Below are positions 1,877 through 63,988 of a DNA stretch of 64,000 bases, one piece after another. A program made the position numbers and the translations under genes. Below the pieces are notes generated by a model. The model was not told the origin of the DNA. It ran no database searches and was given only the letters and a program-made list of their open reading frames with translations. Source of the DNA: Oscillospiraceae bacterium (GTDB lineage Bacteria; Bacillota; Clostridia; Oscillospirales; SIG627); assembly GCA_015065265.1 (NCBI GenBank), contig SVQQ01000007.1, forward strand, positions 475 to 64,474, written 5' to 3'. Each line of letters starts with the position of its first letter. The first letter of the stretch is position 1.

Positions 1877-3064
1877 TTAAAGTATAAATTCCCTTTTTCC
1901 TGTTGTGAGTTCTTCCCATACGGGTGAAATCTCTCTCAAATACGCTACCACTTCGGCAACGGATTTTATAATATAGTCAATTTCTTCCTCGGTGTTTTCC
2001 TCGGTTATTGTAAGTCTGAGCGAACCGTGGGCAACGTCGTGGGGAAGTCCTATTGACAAAAGCACGTGGCTTGGGTCAAGTGAGCCTGAGGTACAAGCAG
2101 AGCCTGAAGAGGCTTCAATTCCTTTTTCGTCAAGGAGTAAAAGCAAACTTTCCCCCTCAATTCCTTCAAAACATACGTTTACGTTACCTGGGAGTCTCTT
2201 TTTTAGGTCTCCATTGATTTTAGAGTGAGGAATTTGTGAAAGTCCGTCTATAAGTTTCTGTCTTAAAGGAAGAAGAATTTCGGCGTTTTTATCTATATTT
2301 TCTACAGCCTCACTCATCGCGGCACACATTCCCCAAACGCCTGCAAGGTTTTCGGTTCCTGCTCTTTTATTTCTTTCCTGTGCACCACCTTCAATGAGAG
2401 AAGAAAGTATCACACCTCGTCTGCAATAGAGAAATCCCACTCCCTTAGGGCCATGGAATTTGTGTGCGGAAACCGAGAGCATATCAACTTGAAGTTCGTT
2501 TACGTCAATTTTCAGGTGTCCTGCCGCCTGAACAGCGTCTGTGTGGAAAACTACTCCTTTTTCTCGGCATATTTTTCCAATTTCGCCGATAGGCTGAATG
2601 GTTCCTATCTCGTTATTGGCGAACATTACTGTAACAAGGGCGGTGTCCTCTCTGATTGCCTTTGCCACGTCCTCGGCTTTTACAATTCCGTCTTCATTTA
2701 CGTCAACAAGCGTTATTTCAAAGCCCTGTCTTTCAAGTTTTTTCAGGGTATGGAGTACCGCGTGGTGCTCGAATTTTGTGGATACAATGTGCTTTTTATT
2801 CTTTTTAAGTCCGTTTTTGGCTGCCGAAAGGATTGCCTGATTGTCGGCTTCGCTTCCTCCTGAAGTGAAATAAATTTCTCTTGCCTCGGCACCGATAAGA
2901 CTTGCAATTTTATTTCTCGCAAGACTTAGTTCTTCTGCCGCTATCTGACCTGTTGTGTTAAGAGATGAGGGGTTTCCGTAAATTTTATCAAAATATGGGA
3001 GCATAGCGTCAATGGCGGTTTTGCTCATCTTTGTGGTTGCGGCGTTATCTGCATATATTCTCAT
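1877..3064 (-). CDS. nifS: Cysteine desulfurase NifS/IscS
   Basis: 395 aa class V aminotransferase with SAHKFHGPKG (PLP lysine) and SSGSACTS (active-site Cys). Confidence 0.9.
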   Translation of the reverse strand: MRIYADNAATTKMSKTAIDAMLPYFDKIYGNPSSLNTTGQIAAEELSLARNKIASLIGAEAREIYFTSGGSEADNQAILSAAKNGLKKNKKHIVSTKFEHHAVLHTLKKLERQGFEITLVDVNEDGIVKAEDVAKAIREDTALVTVMFANNEIGTIQPIGEIGKICREKGVVFHTDAVQAAGHLKIDVNELQVDMLSVSAHKFHGPKGVGFLYCRRGVILSSLIEGGAQERNKRAGTENLAGVWGMCAAMSEAVENIDKNAEILLPLRQKLIDGLSQIPHSKINGDLKKRLPGNVNVCFEGIEGESLLLLLDEKGIEASSGSACTSGSLDPSHVLLSIGLPHDVAHGSLRLTITEENTEEEIDYIIKSVAEVVAYLREISPVWEELTTGKREFIL

Positions 3065-3497
3065 TTATCTGTCCTTCTTTTGATATAGATTTTTCTTGAT
3101 TTACCACGTCTTCAAGGGTGGTTGAATCGATGTAGTCGTTTATGGTCTTGTTAAGTCCTTCCCAGAAAAAGAGGGTTGGGCAACAGTTACTGCTCTTGCA
3201 TCTGTTAGGGGAGTCCTCAACACAAGAAATAGGCGCCATTGAGCCTTCTGTCGCTCTTAAAATTTCGCCTACCGTGTATTCGCTTGGCGCTTTTGACAGT
3301 TTATAGCCTCCACTTTTTCCACGTGTGCTCTTTATCAGTTTTGAGCCAAGGAGCATTGTGATTATCTGTTCAAGATATTTTGCCGACACGTTTTGTCTTG
3401 TGGCTATTCCCTTTAAAGATACGTATTCTTCGCTATCCGATAGGGCGAGGTCAAGCATTATTTTAAGGGCGTATCTCCCTCTTGTCGAAATCTTCAT
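3045..3497 (-). CDS. Rrf2-family transcriptional regulator (IscR/CymR type)
   Basis: Begins MKISTRGRYALKIMLDLA with a winged-helix N-terminus and a C-terminal Cys cluster (CVEDSPNRCKSSNCC). It is the first gene of the nifS-nifU operon. Confidence 0.85.
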   Translation of the reverse strand: MKISTRGRYALKIMLDLALSDSEEYVSLKGIATRQNVSAKYLEQIITMLLGSKLIKSTRGKSGGYKLSKAPSEYTVGEILRATEGSMAPISCVEDSPNRCKSSNCCPTLFFWEGLNKTINDYIDSTTLEDVVNQEKSISKEGQINENICR

Positions 3498-3504
3498 CTG
3501 TTAT

Positions 3505-4151
3505 CCTTTCTTCGTCTCTTTATGTGCATTTTTGGTTAAAATACAGAAATGAAAAGATTATTAGAATTTTAATAAAACAAAATCATATACAAAAATTGAA
3601 TTTTTTATAGTTTTCTTTATATACAGTTTTCTGCGGAAAGAAATTCAAAGAATTTCTTGCAATTTTATCCAATTTCATTTCTTCGCGTGTTGCTCGGACT
3701 GCTGTACCCTTGTACAGCGACGCCGTCGCACTCCGCGATTTTTCCTCAAAAATGCTCTACTTTTTTGGGCTGTGGGCTGAGATTTAAAGATTAAAAATTT
3801 TATTTTCCCTCAAAGATACTCTCTCACTCTTTTCGGGTTGTGGGCTAATGTCTTTACAATGGATAGCAGAAGACGCGAGTACTAGCAAAAATCGTCTTTA
3901 ATCCTTGTATATAGGCTAATTTCAAATAAATTTATTGAAGATTTGCAAAGCAAATCAACCTTAATTCTGCATTTTGCATTTTGCATTCTGCATTTATAAT
4001 AATTGAAGATTTGCGAAGCAAATCAACCTTAATTTTACATTTGAGCGGGGGATTTTTGTGGTGTAGCGTTTAGCGGAACCTACAAAAATTCAAGCCATAC
4101 AGGGAGCGTAGCCAAGCATTTTGCGAGGCTAAAGCGAGTCGTACGGCATTT
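3505..4151 (+). repeat. Repeat locus A: m1 variant, m3, m4, two m5, m6, two half copies of the palindromic element, m7
   Basis: Direct matches to other loci. Region 3505-3732 resembles 49383-49610 and 4038-4151 resembles 49607-49721. Hairpins lie at 3638-3658 (AAGAAATTC/GAATTTCTT) and 3701-3718 (GCTGTAC/GTACAGC). m6 (3853-3919) resembles 34031-34098 inverted. Confidence 0.9.
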
Positions 4152-4172
4152 ACTGTTTCGTGCAACACATAT

Positions 4173-4201
4173 AATATACCATAGGTTTACTATGAATTCA
4201 A
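4173..4201 (-). promoter_or_regulatory. Candidate sigma-A promoter of the Rrf2-nifS-nifU operon
   Basis: The minus strand reads TTGAAT, a 17-nt spacer, then TGgTATATT (extended -10). Module m7 starts about 20 nt downstream. Confidence 0.4.
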
Positions 4202-4229
4202 TAGTGTTTTAATATATTTTGCAAAAAAA

Positions 4230-4258
4230 TTGACTTTTATTAAATGTTTTGATACAAT
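4230..4258 (+). promoter_or_regulatory. Candidate sigma-A promoter for the 4299 gene
   Basis: TTGACT (4230-4235), a 17-nt spacer, then TACAAT (4253-4258). The ORF-track start codon at 4230 is actually the -35 hexamer. Confidence 0.5.
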
Positions 4259-15643: not shown

Positions 15644-16210
15644 CGTCTTTTTGGTTAAAACAGTTAATATAGTGCAGAATGCAGAATGCAAAATGCTGAA
15701 TTAAGGTTGATTTGCTTCGCAAATCTTCATTCATATACGTTTAGCGGAAAATCCGCTAAACGCACATAAATCAATTCAAATGCGAAGCTTTTGTTCCTTT
15801 ATTCTGCATTTTGCATTTTGCACTCTGCATTTACAACATACACACTAGAATATCAAATATATAAAGCGTAGCCTATGAAAATAGACTACGCTTTACTATG
15901 TCTTTATAATATCATTTCATTTCGGTTTTCACCAAAGAGACGAAAACCTCCGCACACAACCCGAAAAGAAAAGAGTATCTTTGAGGGAAAATCAACGTTT
16001 TACGAAGCCGTCGGCGTACTTACGTACGGCAGTGCGAGTAAACGTTGAAGAAATGAAATTGGAATTGTTCAAAAGAAGTTCGCAGAACTTCTTACATTAG
16101 AAAATTGTTGATTTGAGTGGCAAATACAAAAGAAATAGCCTATAAAAAATAGGCTACACCTTATTAAAAAAACACAACCCCATTTCATTTCGCTTTTCAC
16201 CAAAGAGACG
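15644..16210 (-). repeat. Repeat locus B. From the S41 stop on the minus strand: m1-m2-m3-m4-m5-m1-m2-palindromic element. A truncated + oriented m1 abuts the MORN gene stop.
   Basis: m1 copies lie at 15644-15661 (+), 15914-15942 and 16181-16210 (-). m2 lies at 15862-15895 with a degenerate copy at 16131-16165. m3 is at 16073-16093, m4 at 16003-16060 and m5 at 15943-15993. Confidence 0.9.
15671..15832 (-). mobile_element. ~163-bp palindromic MITE-like element (full copy)
   Basis: Imperfect ~34-bp terminal inverted repeats made of TGCARAA heptamers flank three hairpins: GATTTGC/GCAAATC, GTTTAGCGGA/TCCGCTAAAC and CAAATGC/GCATTTG. Confidence 0.6.
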
Positions 16211-33901: not shown

Positions 33902-34427
33902 AAGTGCAGAATGCAGAATGCAAAATGCAGAATTAAGGAACAAATGCTTCGCATTTGAGTTGATTTTATTATAAGTTTAGCGGAAAATCCGCTAAACACT
34001 TAAAAAACTTAATCATTATAAAAGAGCGTTTTAGTCTATATACAAAGACTAAATCAACTTTTTGACAGTACTCACGTCTTCCGCTTTTTATTGTAAAAAC
34101 TTTAGTTCACAGCCCGTAAAAGCAAGAGTATCTTTGAGGGAAAATCGCTAATATAATTCAGAGTGCAGAATGATGAGTGCAGAGTTAAGGACGATTTGCT
34201 TTGCAAATCTTCAATAATTATAAGTTTAGCGGAAAATCCGCTAAACGCACATAAATCAATTCAAATGCGAAGCATTTGTTCCTTTATTCTGCATTTTGCA
34301 TTTTGCACTCTGCATTACAATATCCACAGAAGAATAGGCAACAAATAAAGCATAGTCCATTTTCATAGACTATGCTTTACTAAATCTCTTATAATGTCAT
34401 TTCATTTCGGTTTTCACCAAAGAGACG
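33902..34427 (-). repeat. Repeat locus C. From the RNHCP gene on the minus strand: m1-m2-palindromic element-m5-m6, then an inverted half element.
   Basis: m1 lies at 34397-34427, m2 at 34346-34379 (AAAGCATAGTC/GACTATGCTTT), m5 at 34101-34148 and m6 at 34031-34098. A half element (+ orientation) lies at 33902-33997. Confidence 0.9.
34157..34316 (-). mobile_element. ~163-bp palindromic MITE-like element (full copy)
   Basis: Near-identical to 57131-57293 and to the reverse complement of 52290-52452. Confidence 0.6.
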
Positions 34428-34741
34428 TCATTTTCAGGGTTCGTAAGTTTGATGAGGAGGGCAGTGTTGTCGTCGTCAGCACACTTATTGCGTACTATCT
34501 CACCGCACTTTTCACAGCGGAAGACTATTATAAAGCCTTTTTTCGCATCGGGCAGGGTCTGGACGGGGCGTAAAACTCCCCGACAGGTGTTCTTTCTGTC
34601 CCCCGGCATCACGTCCACGTGCAAAGAGGACAGACAATAGGGACAGTGATTGCGAGAGGTGTAATGAAGGGGTGAAACCTCTTTTTTACAAACTTCGCAG
34701 ATAAAACCGTTATCGTTTTTCTTAAATCTTTTTTCTTCCAT
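34397..34741 (-). CDS. RNHCP-domain zinc-binding protein
   Basis: Contains CEVCKKEV...YTSRNHCPYCLSSLH...CEKCG. The last ~10 codons (DVSLVKTEMK) are encoded by repeat module m1. Confidence 0.7.
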   Translation of the reverse strand: MEEKRFKKNDNGFICEVCKKEVSPLHYTSRNHCPYCLSSLHVDVMPGDRKNTCRGVLRPVQTLPDAKKGFIIVFRCEKCGEIVRNKCADDDNTALLIKLTNPENDVSLVKTEMK

Positions 34742-45667: not shown

Positions 45668-45720
45668 TTATTTTTCCTTCCAAAAAATTTTCTACATATA
45701 TAATAATATTCAACAGTTAC

Positions 45721-45749
45721 ATTATAACACATTCTCCTCAATCTTGCAA
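45721..45749 (-). promoter_or_regulatory. Candidate sigma-A promoter of dnaA
   Basis: The minus strand reads TTGCAA, a 17-nt spacer, then TGtTATAAT (extended -10). A repeat module m1 starts 11 nt upstream of the -35. Confidence 0.55.
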
Positions 45750-45759
45750 GAGTTAAATT

Positions 45760-46125
45760 CGTATCTTTGGTTAAAAACGAAATGAAAAAACTACTTAATT
45801 TTTAATAGAGTGCACTTTGTTTTTATGGACTATACTTTGCTGTTCTCTTTCTTTTCGGGTTGTGTGCTTAAGTTTTTGTCTTTTTGGTTAAAAACGAAAT
45901 GATATCATATACGTTTAGCGGATTTTCCGCTAAACTTATATAATATTTAATTCAAATGCGAAGCATTTGTTCCTAAATTCAGCATTCAGCATTCTGCACT
46001 CTGCATTTAAGATGTTTAGCGGATTTTCCGCTAAACTTATATAAAAAAGTGCAGTCTATTTTTCATAGGCTACACTTTTTGAAGTTATATTAACTTTTTA
46101 TTTTTATGTTTTCACCAGAAAGACG
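45760..46125. repeat. Repeat locus D. Forward: m1, degenerate m2, m5, m1, half palindromic element, extra GTTTAGCGG hairpin, m2. An inverted m1 abuts the radical-SAM gene stop.
   Basis: m1 copies lie at 45760-45788 and 45877-45903 (+) and at 46095-46125 (-). The hairpin GTTTAGCGGATTTTCCGCTAAAC occurs at 45913-45935 and 46014-46036. A TIR lies at 45970-46008 and m2 at 46044-46080. Confidence 0.85.
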
Positions 46126-47084
46126 TCAACGGAAAATTCGTCAGACAACTTTTTGAGGTTAACCTTCTTTTGCCCAAGGTATTGGGACAGGAGTTTTTCA
46201 GGAACTTCAAGAAAGACCTTTTCACCTTTTTTAAGGTCCATTTTGCGAAGTTTTTCCCGCATTTCGTCAAGGCGTAACCGAGATAAAATTAACTCCCCTA
46301 TTGCATCGTGATAGTCTCCTGCAATAACGTCGTCGGAGTGTAAACCTTCTCCGGATTGAAGGCCTATTCGGATAACGTCGACGTTGTTTTTTAAAAAAAG
46401 ACCAACAACTTTTGCCCCACGCTCCACAGTTTCGTCAAGGGTAGGCGGTTGATACTTTCCCGAAAGATAAAGGTCACCAAGGGCGGTGGAACTAAATACG
46501 ACAGTGGGGTAAACTCGGGCGCTTGTAGCCCCGTGGGAGATTATGTCAAGGGCAGTCTGCCTTTCATTTTCCTCGTTTCCCCCAAACATACCCGTCATCA
46601 TCTGCCCTGTCAGTTCAAAACCCTCTTTTACAATCAAATCCATTGCGTAAAGTGAGGTTTTGGCGTCGTGACCTCTCTTGTTAAGGGTCAAAACTTCGTC
46701 GTTTGTAGACTGAATTCCAAGTTCGATATTTGCAACTTTGTAAAACTTTAAAATACTGAGTATCTCTTCGTCAATATAATCGGGTCTGGTGGAAAGTCTT
46801 ATGGACGAAACTCGCCCCTCTTTGATGAATTTATTTGCGGTTTCAAGAAGTTTTATCATAAGAGAACGCTCAATTCCTGTAAAACTTCCGCCAAAAAATG
46901 CCACTTGAGGCACAAAGGACGAAATTGTCCCAAGTGCCTTTTCGATTTCTTCTTCAACTCCGTCCACGTCAAAGGAAGTTCTTCCCGAAATAGTCCTTTG
47001 ATTACAGAAAACACAATCGTTGGGGCATCCTATGTGGGGTACGAAAATAGGGATATTGGCGTGACGTTTCATGCCCTCTTCCAC
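46104..47084 (-). CDS. Radical SAM protein (ELP3/COG1243-like)
   Basis: Contains IPIFVPHIGCPNDCVFCNQ (CxxxCxxC). The last 7 codons (DVFLVKT) are encoded by repeat module m1. It overlaps cysS by 16 nt. Confidence 0.75.
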   Translation of the reverse strand: MEEGMKRHANIPIFVPHIGCPNDCVFCNQRTISGRTSFDVDGVEEEIEKALGTISSFVPQVAFFGGSFTGIERSLMIKLLETANKFIKEGRVSSIRLSTRPDYIDEEILSILKFYKVANIELGIQSTNDEVLTLNKRGHDAKTSLYAMDLIVKEGFELTGQMMTGMFGGNEENERQTALDIISHGATSARVYPTVVFSSTALGDLYLSGKYQPPTLDETVERGAKVVGLFLKNNVDVIRIGLQSGEGLHSDDVIAGDYHDAIGELILSRLRLDEMREKLRKMDLKKGEKVFLEVPEKLLSQYLGQKKVNLKKLSDEFSVDVFLVKT

Positions 47085-48461: not shown

Positions 48462-49094
48462 TTATTCTCCTTTTTCCAGTGTCTCTATTTTCTTTTGTAG
48501 TTTTTCAATTTCCGCCCTCATTCTGCAAAGTTCTTGGGAAACGGGGTCGGGAATGTGTATCTGGTCAAGGTCGGATTGTCTCTGACCGTCCCTTTTTACA
48601 ACTCGTGCAGGAGCGCCAACAGCAGTTGAATCGGGGGGAATTTCGGTAAGAACCACTGACCCTGCGGCAATTTTTGCCCTGTCCCCTACTTTGAAAGGGC
48701 CAAGAACCTTTGCCCCTGCGCCAACGAGGACACCGTTACCTAAGGTGGGATGTCTCTTTCCAATATCTTTTCCCGTACCGCCAAGGGTTACTCCTTGGTA
48801 AAGTGTACATTCATCACCAATTTCGGCAGTTTCGCCAATAACTACCCCTGAACCGTGGTCAATGAACAGCCCTCTGCCAATAGTCGCACCGGGGTGTATT
48901 TCAATGCCTGTAAAAAATCTGCCCGTTTGGGAGATAAGTCTGGCAATAAAGAAAAGTCGGTGTCTATAAAAGAAATTCGCAATTCTGTAATAAATCAAGG
49001 CGTGAAAGCCTGAATACAGGAAGAAAATTTCAAAAATATTTCTCGCGGCGGGGTCGCGGGATTTAATCGACTTCAAATCCTCAAATATCTTCAT
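48462..49094 (-). CDS. cysE: Serine O-acetyltransferase
   Basis: Has hexapeptide repeats and GIEIHPGATIG. Confidence 0.9.
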   Translation of the reverse strand: MKIFEDLKSIKSRDPAARNIFEIFFLYSGFHALIYYRIANFFYRHRLFFIARLISQTGRFFTGIEIHPGATIGRGLFIDHGSGVVIGETAEIGDECTLYQGVTLGGTGKDIGKRHPTLGNGVLVGAGAKVLGPFKVGDRAKIAAGSVVLTEIPPDSTAVGAPARVVKRDGQRQSDLDQIHIPDPVSQELCRMRAEIEKLQKKIETLEKGE

Positions 49095-49101
49095 TTAGGT
49101 T

Positions 49102-49721
49102 CCTTTCTTCGTCTCTTTGGTGAAAAACGAAATGAAATTGGGTATAGAATATAGTAAGGCGTAATCTGTTTTTAAAGTTTATGCTTTGTTTGTCATCTGT
49201 TCCAATATATAATTTTTTCAAAGTAAGAAGTTCTGCGAACTTCTTTTCATCTATTTCAATTTCATTTCTTCGTTTCTTGCTCGGACTACTGTACATAAGT
49301 ACAGTTACGCCTTCGCAATAAACGATTTTCCCTCAAAGATACTCTCTCTTTTCATTTGGGTTATGTGTTGAAGGCTCAAAGTCCTTTCTTCGTCTCTTTG
49401 GTGTGCATTTTTGGTTAAAATACAGAAATGAAAAGGTTATTAAGTTTTTAATAAAACAAAAACCATTCACAAATCTTAACTTTTTCAAAGCATTCTATAT
49501 ATACAGTTTTCTTCGGAAAGAAATTCTACGAATTTCTCTTGAATTTTTTATTTCATTTCTTCGCGTGTTGCTCGGACTGGCGTACCATTGTACGCCGACG
49601 CCTTCGCACTTGAGCGGGGGATTTTTGTGGTGTAGCGTTTAGCGAAACCTACAAAAATTCAAGCCATACAGGGAGCGTAGCCGAGCAGTGTGTGAGGCTA
49701 AAGCGAGTCGGACTGCATTTT
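49102..49721 (+). repeat. Repeat locus E, lying between cysE and its T-box: m1, degenerate m2, m3, m4, m5, then an m1 variant, m3 variant, m4, m7
   Basis: m1 lies at 49110-49138 and 49391-49435, m3 at 49225-49245 and 49519-49537, m4 hairpins at 49288-49305 and 49579-49596, m5 at 49321-49382 and m7 at 49607-49721. Confidence 0.9.
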
Positions 49722-52178: not shown

Positions 52179-52596
52179 TGTCTCTTTGGTGAAAATACAG
52201 AAATGAAATGATATTATAAAGACATAGTAAAGCGTAGTCTTTAAAAAAGGCTACGCTTTATATATTTGATATTCTAGTGTGTATGTTGTAAATGCAGAGT
52301 GCAAAATGCAAAATGCAGAATAAAGGAACAAATGCTTCGCATTTGAGTTAATTTTATTATACGTTTAGCGGATTTTCCGCTAAACTTATAATTATTGAAG
52401 ATTTGCAAAGCAAATCAACCTTAATTCTGCACTCATCATTCTGCACTCTGAATTATATTAGCGATTTTCCCTCAAAGATACTCTTCTCTTTTCATTTAGG
52501 CTGTGTGTTGAAAGTTTGAGTCTCTTTGGCTAAAACCGAAATGAAATTATAATAAATAGTAAAGCATAGTCTATAAAAATAGGCTATGCTTTATAT
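52179..52596 (+). repeat. Repeat locus F: m1-m2-palindromic element-m5-m1-m2, starting 2 nt after the M23 stop
   Basis: m1 lies at 52179-52209 and 52518-52547, m2 at 52228-52260 and 52560-52593, and m5 at 52461-52517. Confidence 0.9.
52290..52452 (+). mobile_element. ~163-bp palindromic MITE-like element (full copy, reference orientation)
   Basis: The left TIR is TGCAGAGTGCAAAATGCAAAATGCAGAATAAAGG. The right TIR, reverse-complemented, is TTCAGAGTGCAGAATGATGAGTGCAGAATTAAGG, matching at 27 of 34 positions. Three internal hairpins are centred on GTTTAGCGGATTTTCCGCTAAAC. Confidence 0.6.
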
Positions 52597-55571: not shown

Positions 55572-56129
55572 ATGAAAATAATACTTGCTTCAAATTCCCC
55601 TCGCAGAAAAGAAATTCTTTCAAGTTTCGGCTTTGAGGTGGTGACAGTACCCTCTGCACCCGAAAATCCTCCGCCAGAAAACTTGACAGTGGAAGAAAAG
55701 GTGTCCTTCCTTGCCCTTGAGAAAGGACTTGACGCAGAAAAACTTTACCCCGATACTCCCGTTGTCTCTGCCGATACGGTGGTGGTTTTGGGGGAGAGTA
55801 TTATGGGAAAACCCAAAGACCGACAAAACGCCTTCGAGATGCTGCGCGCCCTTTCGGGCAAGACTCATAAGGTCATTACCGCCTATACTCTCTTTTATAA
55901 AGGGCAGAGGGTCAGCAGAAGCGTTGTTACCGACGTAACCTTTTATGAACTGACAGATGAGGAAATTTTAGATTACGTCGACACAGGAGAAGTTTATGAC
56001 AAGGCAGGTTCGTACGGTATTCAAGGAAAGGGCGCAGTTCTTGTGAAGGGCATACAAGGCGACTATCTTAACGTTGTGGGATTTCCTCTTTCTGATTTTT
56101 ATCGCTCTTATCTCTGGGCTGTCAAGTGA
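55572..56129 (+). CDS. maf: Maf-like nucleoside triphosphate pyrophosphatase
   Basis: Contains ILASNSPRRKEIL...SADTVV...DKAGSYGIQG. Confidence 0.9.
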   Translation: MKIILASNSPRRKEILSSFGFEVVTVPSAPENPPPENLTVEEKVSFLALEKGLDAEKLYPDTPVVSADTVVVLGESIMGKPKDRQNAFEMLRALSGKTHKVITAYTLFYKGQRVSRSVVTDVTFYELTDEEILDYVDTGEVYDKAGSYGIQGKGAVLVKGIQGDYLNVVGFPLSDFYRSYLWAVK

Positions 56130-56140
56130 GAAAAGAATAT

Positions 56141-56169
56141 AAAAAGTGCAGTTATAACTGCACTTTTTT
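56141..56169 (+). terminator. Intrinsic terminator after maf
   Basis: AAAAAGTGCAGTTA/TAACTGCACTTTTT palindrome followed by a T run. Confidence 0.8.
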
Positions 56170-56175
56170 GACACT

Positions 56176-56303
56176 TTTAGCGGAAAATCCGCTAAACACG
56201 GAGAATGTTTTTTCAAAAAAGAGACAAAAAAGTATAGCCTGTTTATATAGGCTATACTTTTTAAAATCTAAATAAACTTTTTTAGGCTTTAACCAAAGAG
56301 ACG
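56176..56303 (-). repeat. Repeat locus H (minimal): GTTTAGCGG-type hairpin, m2, partial m1 abutting the mgtC stop
   Basis: TTTAGCGGAAAATCCGCTAAA lies at 56176-56196. The m2 variant AAAAAGTATAGCCT/AGGCTATACTTTTT lies at 56227-56265. The m1 remnant GGCTTTAACCAAAGAGACG lies at 56285-56303. Confidence 0.8.
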
Positions 56304-57005
56304 TCAGAAACTAATTGCTTTGATTTCTTTTTCTGCATTAAAGAGATCAAGCACCTTCGCCGCATCAAGATCAGCATCTCCTGCAACCGACATAATAATA
56401 GTGAATACACCGTCGTCGCCAAGGGAAATTTTAGTGTCTCTTACGACGATATTGTTTTCTGCAAGAACTTCTTTAAGTCTTTCTATTGAAGCGTCGTTGT
56501 TTTCAAGTCTTATAACTACGTCAAAGGAATTGTCGTTGGCAAGGATTTTGTCAAATCCGATAAGGAAGGTATGGAAAAGAATCTGTATTACGATAATTAT
56601 AACCGTTGCCACAACACCCGTTATGTAAAGTCCGCAACCGATTGCGAGTCCTACGCCCGCTGTCGCCCAGATACCTGCCGCTGTGGTAAGACCTTTAATA
56701 TTTGTGCCTTTAACGAAAATCATACCTGCGCCAAGGAAGGATATTCCCGTTACAACGTTTGATGCAATTCTCGATGCGTCTGCTCGAAGTCCCTCAAACT
56801 GCAAGATATCAAAAAATCCGTATTTTGACACTATAATAATAAGGGCTGCGCCTAACGCAACGATTACGTGAGTTCTGAATCCTGCGTCTTTCTGTCTCAA
56901 AGTTCTTTCTATTCCTATTGCGCCACCGCAAAGACAGGCAATAAGTATTCTGATTATGTACATCCATTCGGAATTAACGTCTGTAAAAATCTTCAAAAAT
57001 TCCAA
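56304..57005 (-). CDS. mgtC: MgtC/SapB family membrane protein with C-terminal ACT-like domain
   Basis: Has 4-5 TM helices with GAIGIERTLRQKDAGFRTH, the MgtC family signature. Confidence 0.8.
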   Translation of the reverse strand: MEFLKIFTDVNSEWMYIIRILIACLCGGAIGIERTLRQKDAGFRTHVIVALGAALIIIVSKYGFFDILQFEGLRADASRIASNVVTGISFLGAGMIFVKGTNIKGLTTAAGIWATAGVGLAIGCGLYITGVVATVIIIVIQILFHTFLIGFDKILANDNSFDVVIRLENNDASIERLKEVLAENNIVVRDTKISLGDDGVFTIIMSVAGDADLDAAKVLDLFNAEKEIKAISF

Positions 57006-57102
57006 TTCTGCTTTCTCCTTTTAAAGTTTTATACATTGTAACATAAAAGAAAGCAAAATACAAGTGTTAAATCTATGTAAAATTATTTTTTTGTTATTTT
57101 TG

Positions 57103-57942
57103 TATTTTTGAGGGAAAATCGCTAATATAATTCAGAGTGCAGAATGATGAGTGCAGAATTAAGGTTGATTTGCTTTGCAAATCTTCAATAATTATAAGTT
57201 TAGCGGAAAATCCGCTAAACTTATATAAAAACCAACTCAAATGCGAAGCATTTGTTCCTTTATTCTGCATTTTGCATTTTGCACTCTGCATTTACAACAT
57301 ACACACTAGAATATCAAATATATAAAGCGTAGCATATTTTCATAAGCTACGCTTTACTAAATCTTTATACTAACTTTTCATTTCTGTATTTTCACCAAAG
57401 AGACGAAAATTTAAGCACACAGCCCGAAAAGAGAAGAGTATCTTTGAGGGAAAATCGCGGAGTGCGAAGGCGTCGGCGTACAATGGTACGCCAGTCCGAG
57501 CAACACGCGAAGAAATGAAATTGGAATAATTAAAAAGAAGTTCGTGAGAACTTCTTACATTAAAAGAGTTGTACAAAGAAAAAGAAAATAAATAAAGCGT
57601 AGCCTTTTTTAAAGACTACGCTTTACTATGTCTTTATAATATCATTTCATTTCTGTATTTTCACCAAAAAGACGAAAATTTAAGCACACAGTTTAAATGA
57701 AAAGAGAGAGTATTTTTGAGGGAAAATTCGCAATCCCGAAGCCCCGTCGCTGTACTTACGTACAGCAGTGCGAGGGAGGGCGAAAGAAATGAAAATAAAT
57801 CAAGAAAATTTCGAAGAAATTTTTTCATCAGAAGAAGTGTAAAATAACACAAAAAAACAAATAAAGCGTAGCATATTTTCATAAGCTACGCTTTACTAAA
57901 TCTTTATACTAACTTTTCATTTCGGTTTTAACCAAAAAGACG
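57103..57942 (-). repeat. Repeat locus G. From the fba stop on the minus strand: two full m1-m2-m3-m4-m5 units, then m1-m2-palindromic element-m5(partial).
   Basis: m1 copies lie at 57915-57942, 57641-57674 and 57375-57405, a period of about 270 bp. m2 lies at 57862-57895, 57593-57625 and 57323-57356. m4 hairpins lie at 57749-57766 and 57475-57492. m3 lies at 57802-57826 and 57535-57556. Confidence 0.92.
57131..57293 (-). mobile_element. ~163-bp palindromic MITE-like element (full copy)
   Basis: About 95% identical by eye to the reverse complement of 52290-52452. Confidence 0.6.
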
Positions 57943-57957
57943 ATAAAAGATACTAAA

Positions 57958-58821
57958 TTACGCTTTGTTGGCTGAGCCGAAGAGAGTGATCTTTTCCCTT
58001 ACAGTTTCCTTTATAGCCTCAACGCCGTCTGCAAGGAGTTTTCTGGGGTCAAAGCCCTTGCCCTGAAGGTCTTTTCCTGCTTCAACGTACTTGCGGGTAG
58101 CGGCAGCGAATGCAAGTTGGCACTCGGTGTTTACGTTAATCTTTGAAACGCCAAGGTCGATAGCCTTCTTAATCATTTCTGCAGGGATACCTGTACCGCC
58201 GTGAAGAACAAGGGGCATCTCTCCAACCTTTTCGTTTATCTTTTCAAGGGTGTCAAATCTTAAACCGCCCCAGTTTTCAGGATATTTACCGTGAATGTTA
58301 CCTATACCTGCGGCGAGCATTGAAACGCCAAGGTCGGCAATCATCTTACACTCGTCGGGGTCAGCGACTTCCCCGCCGCCAACAACTCCGTCTTCTTCGC
58401 CACCGATTGCACCAACTTCGGCTTCAAGGGAGAGACCCTTCTTTTCGCAAACTTCTACAAGTTCACGTGTCTTTGCGATATTCTCTTCGATGGGGTAGTG
58501 TGAACCGTCGAACATAATGGAAGAGAAACCTGCTTCGATACATTTATATGCGCCCTCGTAAGAGCCATGGTCAAGGTGGAGAGCAACGGGAACTGTGATG
58601 CCAAGTCCCTCAATCATACCTTCAACCATATTTACAACTGTTTTAAAACCGCACATATACTTTCCTGCTCCCTCTGAAACACCGAGGATTACAGGGGATT
58701 TCATTTCTTCTGCGGTGAGAAGGATAGCCTTTGTCCATTCAAGGTTATTGATATTGAACTGACCTACTGCGTAATGACCTTCTTTTGCTTTTTTGAGCAT
58801 TTCTTTTGCTGATACTAACAT
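57958..58821 (-). CDS. fba: Class II fructose-bisphosphate aldolase
   Basis: Begins MLVSAKEMLKKAKEGHYAVGQFNINN and contains HLDHG and LHGGTG. I prefer the start at 58821 because AGGAGA lies 7 nt upstream. Confidence 0.9.
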   Translation of the reverse strand: MLVSAKEMLKKAKEGHYAVGQFNINNLEWTKAILLTAEEMKSPVILGVSEGAGKYMCGFKTVVNMVEGMIEGLGITVPVALHLDHGSYEGAYKCIEAGFSSIMFDGSHYPIEENIAKTRELVEVCEKKGLSLEAEVGAIGGEEDGVVGGGEVADPDECKMIADLGVSMLAAGIGNIHGKYPENWGGLRFDTLEKINEKVGEMPLVLHGGTGIPAEMIKKAIDLGVSKINVNTECQLAFAAATRKYVEAGKDLQGKGFDPRKLLADGVEAIKETVREKITLFGSANKA

Positions 58822-63690: not shown

Positions 63691-63806
<116 letters not shown>

Positions 63807-63814
63807 TTTTATAT

Positions 63815-63840
63815 TCCTCCTTAGCTCAGTCGGTAGAGCG
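63815..63840 (+). pseudogene. Orphan 5' fragment of tRNA-Asn (acceptor arm plus D arm only)
   Basis: TCCTCCTTAGCTCAGTCGGTAGAGCG is identical to the first 26 nt of the tRNA at 63913. The downstream sequence cannot form anticodon or T arms. Confidence 0.6.
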
Positions 63841-63912
63841 ATTGAAAGCAAATAAACCGGAAAATTAGCTGCTAAAGAGGAGTCAAAAATAAATGCTGAT
63901 TTTCCACAATAT

Positions 63913-63988
<76 letters not shown>

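Follow-up and report, generated by a model that had tools for sequence, protein, structure and literature searches.

A lineage-restricted mosaic of intergenic hairpin repeats beside genes of an uncultured Oscillospiraceae bacterium

Results

The spacer between fba and mgtC carries, on the minus strand at 57102-57942, an array of three units of ~269 bp (Table 1). Positions are those of the window, the whole 64,000-nt stretch of DNA that was analysed; the organism is an uncultured Oscillospiraceae bacterium of gut or rumen. The first unit begins 15 nt beyond the fba stop codon (57958), and the m1 modules that open the three units start at 57942, 57674 and 57405 on the minus strand, which gives spacings of 268 and 269 nt. 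A TRF call covers 57322-57943 (period 269, 2.3 copies, 77% matches, score 716). The original prediction had described m1 copies ~270 bp apart and the order m1-m2-m3-m4-m5 twice, followed by m1-m2-palindrome-m5; both descriptions agree with the nhmmer map, in which the palindrome (P) measures 164 bp instead of 163. At the mgtC side, the array boundary (57102) is exactly an m5 repeat end, and the DNA next to it is homologous to that of relatives.

Unit 3 is a composite of ~300 bp that recurs, by self-blastn, at 52180-52481 (94%, inverted), at 34128-34427 (88%) and at 15645-16102 (84.5%, within a 466-nt match extending into unit 2), whereas adjoining units of the array are ~76% identical. Because unit 3 is closer to remote copies than neighbouring units are to each other, the copies in the array appear to have been dispersed, and not duplicated locally.

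Table 1. Coordinates of the repeat arrays and related features in the window
Feature	Position	Strand	Description
Unit 1	57679-57942	-	m1 57904-57942; m2 terminator hairpin 57860-57897 (predicted); m3 hairpin 57784-57826; GC-rich m4 hairpin 57737-57774; m5 57679-57727 (nhmmer module map, sequence, TRF)
Unit 2	57410-57674	-	m1 57634-57674; m2 57591-57627; m3 57508-57558; m4 57461-57506; m5 57410-57456
Unit 3 (P-type)	57102-57405	-	m1 57365-57405; m2 57322-57358; 29-nt linker; P 57129-57292; then TATATTAGC; m5 inverted-repeat end 57102-57120
P centre	57199-57219	.	Perfect 21-bp palindrome TTTAGCGGA-AAA-TCCGCTAAA
Non-repeat, ancestral mgtC upstream region	57006-57101	-	57055-57109 aligns with the dnaA-mgtC spacer of relatives
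Short array 3′ of mgtC	56158-56303	-	m1 56287-56303, directly after the TGA stop; m2 56229-56260; m1-like piece; solitary P centre 56176-56196
Array m1-m2-P-m5-m1-m2	52180-52594	+	Between convergent G5/M23 peptidase and polysaccharide deacetylase genes
Array m1-m2-m3-m4-m5-m1'-(alternative m2)-m3-m4-m6	49110-49719	+	m1 end 15 nt from the ATG of 48462-49094 (minus), with the complement of a Shine-Dalgarno sequence (CCTTTCTT) between them
Array from the radical-SAM gene stop to the dnaA start	45760-46125	.	Minus: m1-m2, P centres, P arm; plus: m5-m1 and m1. Radical-SAM ORF terminates within m1 (46104); ancestral dnaA upstream region 45668-45729 intact beside the array
Array m1-m2-P-m5-m7-half P	33905-34427	-	3′ of the RNHCP gene; the ORF of this gene continues through m1
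Array of two units	15644-16210	.	Fills the entire spacer between two convergent genes; m1-type ends 1 nt from either stop codon
Array m1'-(alternative m2)-m3-m4-m5-m5-m7-two P arms-m6	3513-4150	+	m1 end 15 nt from the ATG of the adjoining Rrf2 gene (3045-3497, minus)
m6	4038-4150	+	~106-113 nt, two stem-loops; second copy 49607-49719

The module grammar is m1-m2-(m3-m4 or P)-m5, ending in m6, with units of 240-300 bp built from modules of 40-160 nt that are of at least eight kinds. The outer ends of a unit, m1 (CGTCTCTTTGGTGAAAA...) and m5 (...ATTTTCCCTCAAAGATAC), are imperfect inverted repeats, matching at 75% over 16 nt in each of the two units compared, and there are two alternative interiors, either m2-m3-m4 or m2 plus the 164-bp P. 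The P-type unit at 15644-16210 is closed by a true inverted m1 (15644-15663). Because the linker of ~30 nt from an m5 to the next m1 is itself conserved, the unit boundaries are open to other parsings; for example, the same sequences can be divided into a ~70-bp m5+m1 palindrome and a ~145-bp element bounded by AGAAATGAAAT and ATTTCATTTCT.

The hairpins of m2, m3 and m4 are maintained through compensatory substitutions. For m2, 96.7% of cells are paired and 17 are double-change cells, compared with 4.7 in shuffles (0/500). Compensatory changes affect 9 of the 15 pairs of m4 (0/500), and three pairs of m3, in which 8/8 pairs are preserved across 12 copies. The m4 hairpin is a strand-symmetric palindrome (of 184 cells, 176 are paired on one strand and 175 on the other, with only one G-U pair on either). 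A strand preference of m4 was rejected, given its Watson-Crick pairing on both strands, and its MFE difference between strands is not due to stem G-U pairing. Also rejected was an m3-encoded peptide, because the ORF varies between copies (MKLE*, 15 aa, 17 aa or absent). Promoter-like sites inside the units are not enriched (3 versus 5.7 expected in shuffles).

The m2 module is a predicted strand-specific intrinsic (Rho-independent) terminator. In the alignment, a stem-loop containing GC is followed by a T-rich 3′ flank that includes a T tract, and the module lies 3′ of stop codons, in the sense orientation in 12/12 cases. In 14 of 15 copies its RNA folds more stably from the forward strand (-18.5 versus -14.0 kcal/mol, p = 4e-4), and G-U pairs are confined to that strand. 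A terminator scan gave seven sites, compared with 1.4 expected; six are on the minus (forward) strand, five of these within repeat modules, and in unit 2 both m2 and m3 were scored on the minus strand.

All seven further spacers that had been predicted to hold identical modules in the same order were recovered by self-blastn and nhmmer (Table 1). The predicted counts of m1 (16) and m4 (6) were exact; m2 has 11 copies and not ~12, and for P there are four full copies, as predicted, and six partial ones instead of four. The arrays amount to 4,016 bp, or 6.3% of the window, close to the first estimate of ~4.1 kb and ~6%; of the eight spacers that exceed 300 bp, seven carry arrays, in agreement with the claim that nearly every such spacer is repeat. 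Likewise, the prediction that transposase, integrase, RT and cas genes are absent holds for the Pfam annotation of the window genes (four ORFs had no Pfam match), and neither a transposase nor a RAYT was found in the 104 kb sampled from this organism. That sample includes 40 kb of flanking DNA with six further arrays, making 14 arrays in 104 kb. Because all the sampled loci, including a flanking piece 23-44 kb left of the window, fall within one ~108-kb stretch, a genome-wide spread is an extrapolation.

All 17 terminal m1 copies have their m1 end within 0-18 nt of a coding boundary, and the orientation of m1 follows a strict rule: sense after stops, antisense before starts and within an operon. 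Adjacent gene ends are accompanied by sense m1 in 12/12 cases, either 0-15 nt away or overlapped by the ORF, and adjacent gene starts by antisense m1 in 5/5 cases, 15-18 nt away; the latter include the hisS-aspS operon spacer (a search for a T-box upstream of hisS found none). Simple insertion does not account for so exact a fit between m1 and the coding boundaries. Several ORFs terminate within the repeat. Protein C-termini are altered as well: RNHCP has 114 aa here versus 103 aa in relatives, and a search beyond the array for its displaced native 3′ end gave an 8-nt match only. A special role for TGA beside m1 was rejected; overall stop usage is TAA 22, TGA 20 and TAG 4, so an in-frame TGA at m1 is unremarkable. 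Two out-of-frame TGACGTCT junctions stay odd.

The palindrome P has 51-nt arms that are 75% complementary, with hairpins that contain GCGAAGC, a sequence that forms an unusually stable DNA mini-hairpin. Its 21-nt centre occurs eight times in the window, with none expected from shuffles, and is perfect and invariant in 10/10 copies from the organism. The centre is identical to the XRE (HTH_3) operator palindrome of many other Clostridia. A scan of genome contigs listed at least 110 loci, a lower bound for its distribution; the matches listed are mostly single operator sites, not repeats, and among them P copies in a repeat context outside the organism occur only in the MAG JAZSLY01. Of the 98 sites listed in other genomes, 57 adjoin a gene of 66-81 aa, M(L)YRRIRDLRED... 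(PF01381). We hypothesize that the P centre, TTTAGCGGAAAATCCGCTAAA, is a candidate site for an HTH_3 protein of the MYRRIRDLRED type; no homologue of the XRE regulator was found by tblastn in the 104 kb sampled.

The m6 module is inserted cleanly within an m4 hairpin and within a P heptad, uninterrupted versions of which exist elsewhere. It has neither terminal inverted repeats nor a duplication, a stem-loop is located near either end, and the left flank always ends in T. It is also present in JAZSLY01 at 80-85% identity, the two-hairpin fold being kept across two genera. These features, together with the length of ~110 nt, the precise points of insertion in other repeats and the occurrence in more than one genus, recall PATE-like derivatives of IS200/IS605, a resemblance that we offer as a lead only. 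Unlike those elements, m6 is not seen alongside TnpA or TnpB.

Relatives with 82-88% identical proteins (GyrA/SerS 86-88%) contain no module in the 68 kb plus 10 kb compared; their orthologous spacers are short, with terminators of their own. Only P and m6 recur, in the more distant JAZSLY01 (GyrA 76% identity), where the hisS-aspS gap is 43 nt versus 358 nt here. By these sequence comparisons the repeats are lineage-restricted, and the modules are separable families with differing taxonomic ranges. A metagenome scan with an m5 20-mer returned two chance matches inside coding sequence, the organism evidently being absent from that collection.

Repeats are located at rearrangement junctions. 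One strain (L004) has a strain-specific inversion of 4.6 kb, the junction of which is a clean hybrid of two arrays (F/H), with the 52180-52594 array as the inverted partner of unit 3. The ancestral dnaA-mgtC spacer has been split, and its halves are now 11.3 kb apart with repeats abutting each. No array, that between fba and mgtC included, was found to be flanked by a target-site duplication. There is no presence/absence polymorphism of units, array lengths being equal across every strain sampled, and even the youngest paralogues differ by ~3-6%, so the units may no longer be mobile.

Discussion

The repeat family appears to be undescribed, its organization being of an already known type, mosaic and MITE/REP-like. 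In accordance with the original prediction of an undescribed modular family, there was no match in Rfam, plasmids, phages or the literature searched. The only Rfam matches in the window are 5S rRNA and a tRNA, with none for the repeats at gathering or permissive thresholds; region searches gave nothing credible at E<=10 in 56100-58000, no match at E<=0.5 in 3480-4240, and no match in L132. The resemblance to BOX and BIME elements that had been noted is well founded, because the m1-m2-(m3-m4 or P)-m5 grammar is an organization of the BIME/NIME/BOX type. The units are like MITEs in their terminal inverted repeats (m1/m5) and in being small, non-coding and present in many dispersed copies, with no flanking target-site duplication; they are like REP/BIME sequences in being imperfect palindromes in extragenic mosaic clusters with hairpin covariation. 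They do not form an integron attC array, as there is no integrase and the arrays are flanked by housekeeping genes of either orientation.

Comparable properties are found in BOX, SPRITE, BIME, NIME and Correia elements (PMC3049150). Like the BIMEs and REP (PU) sequences of enterobacteria, our repeats are extragenic palindrome mosaics with a fixed grammar and tandem clusters (PMC3049150, as background). The two are also alike in lying mostly 3′ of genes and between convergent genes, in hairpins kept by compensatory change and in effects on termination and mRNA, which for our repeats are predicted. In contrast to BIMEs, the modules here are longer (40-160 nt) and of at least eight kinds, have no sequence similarity to them, form units with terminal inverted repeats and are hosted by a Clostridia MAG. 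The BOX element of Streptococcus pneumoniae (boxA-boxB(n)-boxC) is likewise a Firmicutes composite with pairing end modules and a variable interior, non-coding and highly folded, which proliferated in the past and is now nearly static (PMC3049150). Our units differ in sequence, in having alternative cassettes as the interior (m2-m3-m4 or m2-P) and in the tandem arrangement of whole units; the host is of a different class from pneumococcus, and no streptococcal record is among the 110 P-centre loci listed. The m1-m2 part resembles a terminator-like interspersed repeat that is strongly enriched at gene 3′ ends, including convergent pairs, and oriented with the gene (PMC3049150), except that the putative terminator is here one module of a larger unit, that the repeat begins only 0-3 nt from the stop codon and that several ORFs end in it. 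Finally, the Correia elements and NIMEs of Neisseria and other MITEs share the length of 100-300 bp, inverted-repeat ends, lack of an ORF and, for NIMEs, mosaic intergenic arrays, and are able to donate promoters or terminators and to carry protein-binding sites. Unlike these, our repeats have no detected TA or other target duplication and no known cognate IS, and their inverted repeats are only ~75% matched.

We consider it probable that a non-coding composite repeat, specific to this lineage, occupies the fba-mgtC spacer as three adjacent copies and is a hairpin mosaic of the BIME/NIME/BOX/MITE kind. The units would be present or former non-autonomous mobile DNA that accumulated and nested in intergenic space, and the mobilizing enzyme would be encoded elsewhere in the genome. 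A sense m2, and probably m3, would end transcription of the upstream gene, in the fba array as in others, and mgtC may retain its ancestral promoter. Because a sense m2 would terminate transcription, selection would permit sense copies only after gene ends, and antisense copies only within operons or in the stretch from a promoter to its gene. The m1 end may have replaced native gene ends: one strand would obtain from it stop codons and a terminator, and on the other it lies beside a Shine-Dalgarno sequence. Dispersed copies could serve as substrates for homologous recombination, leading to inversions and to shuffling of gene blocks around the origin.

There are several other scenarios. In a strict REP/BIME-type mechanism, the hairpins of m4, the P arm and m6 would be recognized as single-stranded DNA, with no inverted terminal repeats or target duplications, and moved by a single-copy Y1 transposase (RAYT or IS200/IS605 TnpA) encoded elsewhere. 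E. coli REPs are located next to stop codons, and the position of our repeats resembles theirs. Such a mechanism would also fit the lack of target-site duplications at any junction, the ends of m6 (no inverted repeats, a stem-loop near each, T in the left flank), the strand-symmetric Watson-Crick pairing of m4 and the unusually stable DNA mini-hairpin, GCGAAGC, in the P arms. We nevertheless regard it as unlikely, because there is no Y1 transposase in the 104 kb sampled, the modules are far longer and more varied than REPs with no GTAG head evident at their ends, and the RNA-strand asymmetry of m2 fits a role at the transcript level better than at the DNA level. An origin without transposition, through segmental duplication, unequal crossing-over and gene conversion, with copies kept as terminators or UTR elements, likewise has a low probability in our estimation. 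It would account for the constant module order and the composites of 300-480 bp common to several loci, it has a precedent in the demonstrated recombination between copies, and it is in keeping with the lack of target duplications and of presence/absence polymorphism among strains. However, homologous recombination cannot seed non-homologous loci, yet 14 spacers in 104 kb are occupied and none in relatives; m6 is found at differing precise points inside other modules; and P and m6 are shared with a MAG at 76% GyrA identity and not with closer relatives, a patchiness typical of mobile DNA.

It is very improbable that the ~270-nt units are each a small-RNA or cis-regulatory RNA gene, arranged in tandem like multi-copy sRNA families. 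The conserved, covarying hairpins, the predicted terminator in each unit and the two-hairpin m6 fold across two genera are what such genes might show, but promoter-like sites are not enriched, there is no Rfam match, the short m3 ORF is not conserved, and fragments occur in all combinations, with antisense copies in an operon and overlaps with ORF ends. An assembly artefact or a CRISPR-like array can practically be dismissed. Metagenome assemblies can collapse or chimerize repeats; however, at least six independent assemblies, from JGI and ENA, agree on the fba-mgtC array at 100% identity, and the arrays, which were to be checked as possible artefacts, are therefore real. A CRISPR array, already discounted in the original prediction, would have repeats of ~24-48 nt with unique spacers, whereas the period here is 269 nt, the would-be spacers are repeated modules, all inter-repeat sequence recurs elsewhere, and there are no cas genes.

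To return to the composite mobile repeat that we prefer, there is a more elaborate and quite unlikely version of it, in which the unit is a mobile 'gene-boundary cassette' and not a passive MITE, with m1 built for coding boundaries and P spreading perfect copies of an XRE-repressor operator. If so, sense m1 would provide stops in all three frames together with a terminator, replacing gene ends as at mgtC and RNHCP, and antisense m1 would lie flush against a Shine-Dalgarno sequence or donate one. P would then place dozens of intergenic regions under a single regulator, or would titrate that regulator. The invariant XRE-operator palindrome in P thus offers a testable hypothesis, that of a repeat family spreading transcription-factor sites.

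Interspersed mosaic repeats have been examined in depth in a few cultured pathogens and are almost unknown in uncultured Clostridia, which are dominant in gut and rumen communities. In the organism described here, they make up ~6% of the sampled DNA, where they alter protein C-termini, occupy operon spacers, have reshaped the origin region and probably replace native terminators. Repeats of this kind break or mis-join metagenome assemblies and need to be masked in screens for ncRNAs, and they could be used as a species barcode.

The array between fba and mgtC

The short repeats m1-m7 and the 164-bp palindromic module P were located with iterated nhmmer profiles, and the focal array was read from the fba stop along the minus strand. 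The resulting module map, together with Tandem Repeats Finder (57322-57943: period 269, 2.3 copies, score 716), confirmed the three-unit structure proposed for the fba-mgtC spacer (see table), and the seven further spacers listed in the original prediction proved to be filled by the same modules in unchanged order. The predicted counts for the window held for m1 (16) and m4 (6), whereas m2 has 11 copies rather than about 12, and P has 4 full and 6 partial copies rather than 4 and 4. The predicted repeat share was borne out, with arrays covering 4,016 bp (6.3%) of the window and occupying 7 of the 8 spacers that exceed 300 bp. Also as predicted, transposase, integrase, RT and cas domains are absent from the genes of the window. 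The arrays are the same in JGI and ENA assemblies made independently, which excludes an assembly artefact, an explanation that the original prediction had left room for.

Similarity of the units to copies at other loci is 94%, 88% and 84.5%, but to their neighbors in the array only about 76%. Units that are closer to distant copies than to adjacent ones point to an array built by dispersal or conversion, and the lower similarity between neighbors rules out recent local duplication as its origin.

Structure of the modules

The start of m5 (GATTTTCCCTCAAAGATAC) is an imperfect inverted repeat of m1 (CGTCTCTTTGGTGAAAA...), which gives a unit running from m1 to m5 an inverted repeat at either end. 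In the fba-mgtC spacer the array stops exactly at the end of the m5 repeat, and the adjoining DNA aligns with relatives; a P-type unit in the spacer at 15644-16210 has a true inverted m1 as its closing end. Modules m2, m3 and m4 form hairpins in which the stem varies among copies yet remains paired. The m2 stem is 96.7% paired, with 17 double-change cells against 4.7 expected (0 of 500 shuffles); compensatory changes are found in 9 of the 15 pairs of m4, and all 8 pairs of m3 are retained across 12 copies. In m2, G-U pairs are restricted to the forward strand, whose RNA is the more stable in 14 of 15 copies, and the hairpin with its following T-rich tail is predicted by a terminator scan to be an intrinsic terminator. 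In contrast, m4 is strand-symmetric and pairs by Watson-Crick pairs only. P consists of two arms around a central perfect palindrome, each arm containing four 7-nt repeats, TTAAGG and a small hairpin. Either part, arm or center, is found alone as well.

The m6 module (~106-113 nt) has two stem-loops, with a few compensatory changes across two genera. It is cleanly inserted within an m4 hairpin and within a P heptad, with neither inverted repeats nor target duplication at the insertions, and is thus a candidate PATE-like element or structured RNA. It is 80-85% conserved between this organism and the genus of JAZSLY01, a MAG (GyrA 76% identical, 47% GC), and has no Rfam match.

Coordinates of repeat features. 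Positions are in the window unless preceded by an L-number, which denotes a stretch compared with it; L132 is the 20.6-kb LysA-AspS-HisS locus.
Feature	Position	Strand	Content
Unit 1	57942-57679	minus	m1-m2-m3-m4-m5
Unit 2	57674-57410	minus	m1-m2-m3-m4-m5
Unit 3	57405-57102	minus	m1-m2, linker, P (164 bp, 57129-57292), truncated m5
P center	57199-57219 and 7 other window sites		
m6 copies	4038-4150, 49607-49719; L123 17169-17283; L132 15216-15327; JAZSLY01 L035, L060, L073		
ORFs ending in m1	34397-34741, 46104-47084; L123 15358-16680; L132 1-107		
hisS-aspS spacer	L132 13172-13529		array antisense to operon
Further L132 segment, listed with the hisS-aspS spacer	L132 14784-15412		
JAZSLY01 dense repeats	L037 6780-7260, L066 7330-7562, L096 5180-5420		

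Placement relative to genes

Every terminal unit has its m1 end on a coding boundary. Twelve m1 copies lie 3′ of a gene end, all in sense orientation: seven at 0-3 nt past the stop, the fba copy at 15 nt, and four overlapped by the ORF. Five copies lie 5′ of a start codon, in antisense, 15-18 nt away with a Shine-Dalgarno sequence between; four of these share CCTTTCTT, and hisS and the gene at 48462-49094 have 15 nt in common. Array ends other than m1 are a median of ~75 nt from genes, and native promoters or terminators are left in place. The hisS-aspS spacer, with its antisense array, is 358 nt here compared with 43 nt in JAZSLY01, and no T-box or other Rfam leader was detected across the 20.6-kb locus.

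Two genes differ from those of relatives at their 3′ ends. In relatives mgtC ends in ...AITM-TAA followed by its own terminator, whereas here it ends in ...AISF-TGA with m1 directly 3′; RNHCP has 114 aa here and 103 aa in relatives, the extra 11-aa tail (ENDVSLVKTEMK) being encoded by 8 nt plus m1. Judged by this comparison, the native ends of both genes are replaced. The four ORFs that end within m1 encode RNHCP, a radical-SAM protein, a CNNM protein and a GFO_IDH oxidoreductase.

The simplest reading of the orientations has two parts. Sense copies after genes would be tolerated, and useful, as predicted terminators, and those lying within an operon, or separating a promoter from its gene, would persist only in the non-terminating orientation.

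Rearrangements and distribution

The presence of dnaA, dnaN, recF and gyrBA places the window at the replication origin. Its MgtC is 100% identical to NCBI MBE6700954.1, a protein from an Oscillospiraceae MAG. In relatives (L119-L122), dnaA and mgtC are divergent neighbors ~300 bp apart; here the halves of that ancestral spacer lie at 45668-45729 and 57055-57109, 11.3 kb apart, and repeats abut each half, which indicates a reshuffling of the genes beside the origin. In a second strain (L004, 99.8-99.9% identical), the 4.6-kb segment 52482-57101, from a polysaccharide deacetylase gene to mgtC, is inverted. The junction repeat (L004 4805-5106) combines the two inverted copies, 52180-52481 and 57102-57404, as a clean hybrid, and the crossover falls inside ~100 nt over which they are identical. 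These copies share at most 114 nt without a mismatch, which is below the final k (141) of the assembler. On these alignments, the inversion is likely to be real and repeat-mediated.

The family is not confined to the window, as flanking DNA retrieved through exact protein matches shows. Three more arrays, flanking polA, a CNNM gene and a 252-aa gene, occur in the 9.4 kb to the left, and another three in the LysA-AspS-HisS locus 23-44 kb to the left (contig Ga0224413_10001948); the 9.5 kb to the right (ParAB/TED-SpaA island) contains none. The total is 14 arrays in 104 kb, all inside one stretch of ~108 kb, and from this sample the arrays are likely to be spread genome-wide. Beyond the organism, every module is absent over 68 kb of four relatives (MgtC 82-84%, GyrA 86%, SerS 88% identity) and from another three contigs, all short, whose MgtC is 85-87% identical, and a 20-mer of m5 gave only two chance matches, in coding sequence, in the JGI metagenome collection. 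Among the matches listed, only P (arms and center) and m6 recur elsewhere, both in JAZSLY01. The "family" is thus several separable repeat families in company, whose ranges are patchy and differ from one another.

Two other features were noted near the right edge. At 63691-63985, between a YitT-family gene and the ParA/ParB pair, a solitary 5S rRNA gene is accompanied by a single tRNA, and neither 16S nor 23S is nearby; past 64000, downstream of ParB (L126, L128), strains differ in having TED/SpaA genes or a Gp49-like toxin.

Relation to known repeat systems

In keeping with the predicted likeness to BOX and BIME, the organization is, by analogy, that of the interspersed mosaic repeats already known in bacteria, a class that includes BIME/REP, NIME and Correia elements and the BOX, RUP and SPRITE elements of pneumococcus (PMC3049150). 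That paper describes BOX elements as composite repeats whose interior varies and SPRITE as resembling a terminator and being enriched 3′ of convergent genes, and it reports that the BOX, RUP and SPRITE families proliferated in the past and insert slowly now (PMC3049150). Each of these three features has a parallel here. The repeats also share inverted repeats, small size, lack of an ORF and many copies with MITEs, but no target duplication was found. They do not qualify as a CRISPR array, already rejected in the original prediction, as an integron or as an Rfam RNA. The repeats have no match in Rfam or in plasmid and phage collections, no named family matches in sequence wherever compared, and literature searches found no description; as predicted, this is a real, undescribed family, but one of a known kind. 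What is unusual is m1 lying flush on coding boundaries, with gene-end replacement, and the invariant operator-like palindrome in P.

The palindrome at the center of P

The P center, TTTAGCGGA(W3)TCCGCTAAA, is perfect in 10 of 10 copies, and the arms differ by 10-30%. That it is invariant rather than covarying suggests sequence-specific recognition by a protein. Other genomes, largely from Oscillospirales with some Paenibacillus, carry the same 21-mer in at least 110 stretches (loci L007-L116), where one copy or two overlap a promoter. At 57 of 98 sites among the matches listed, a gene for a 66-81-aa HTH_3 (XRE) protein (MYRRIRDLRED...) lies alongside, and from this arrangement the 21-mer is probably the operator of the adjacent regulator. 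No homologue of this regulator was found in 104 kb of this organism, and a role for P as decoy operator or regulon spreader is therefore offered only as a hypothesis.

JAZSLY01 has dense intergenic repeats of its own, built from numerous short hairpins, their loops of the TTCG/GAAG/GCAA type, and from the 7-nt repeats ATTCATC and ATTCAGC. It also contains tandem P centers with ACCAYWTAATACCATA between them.
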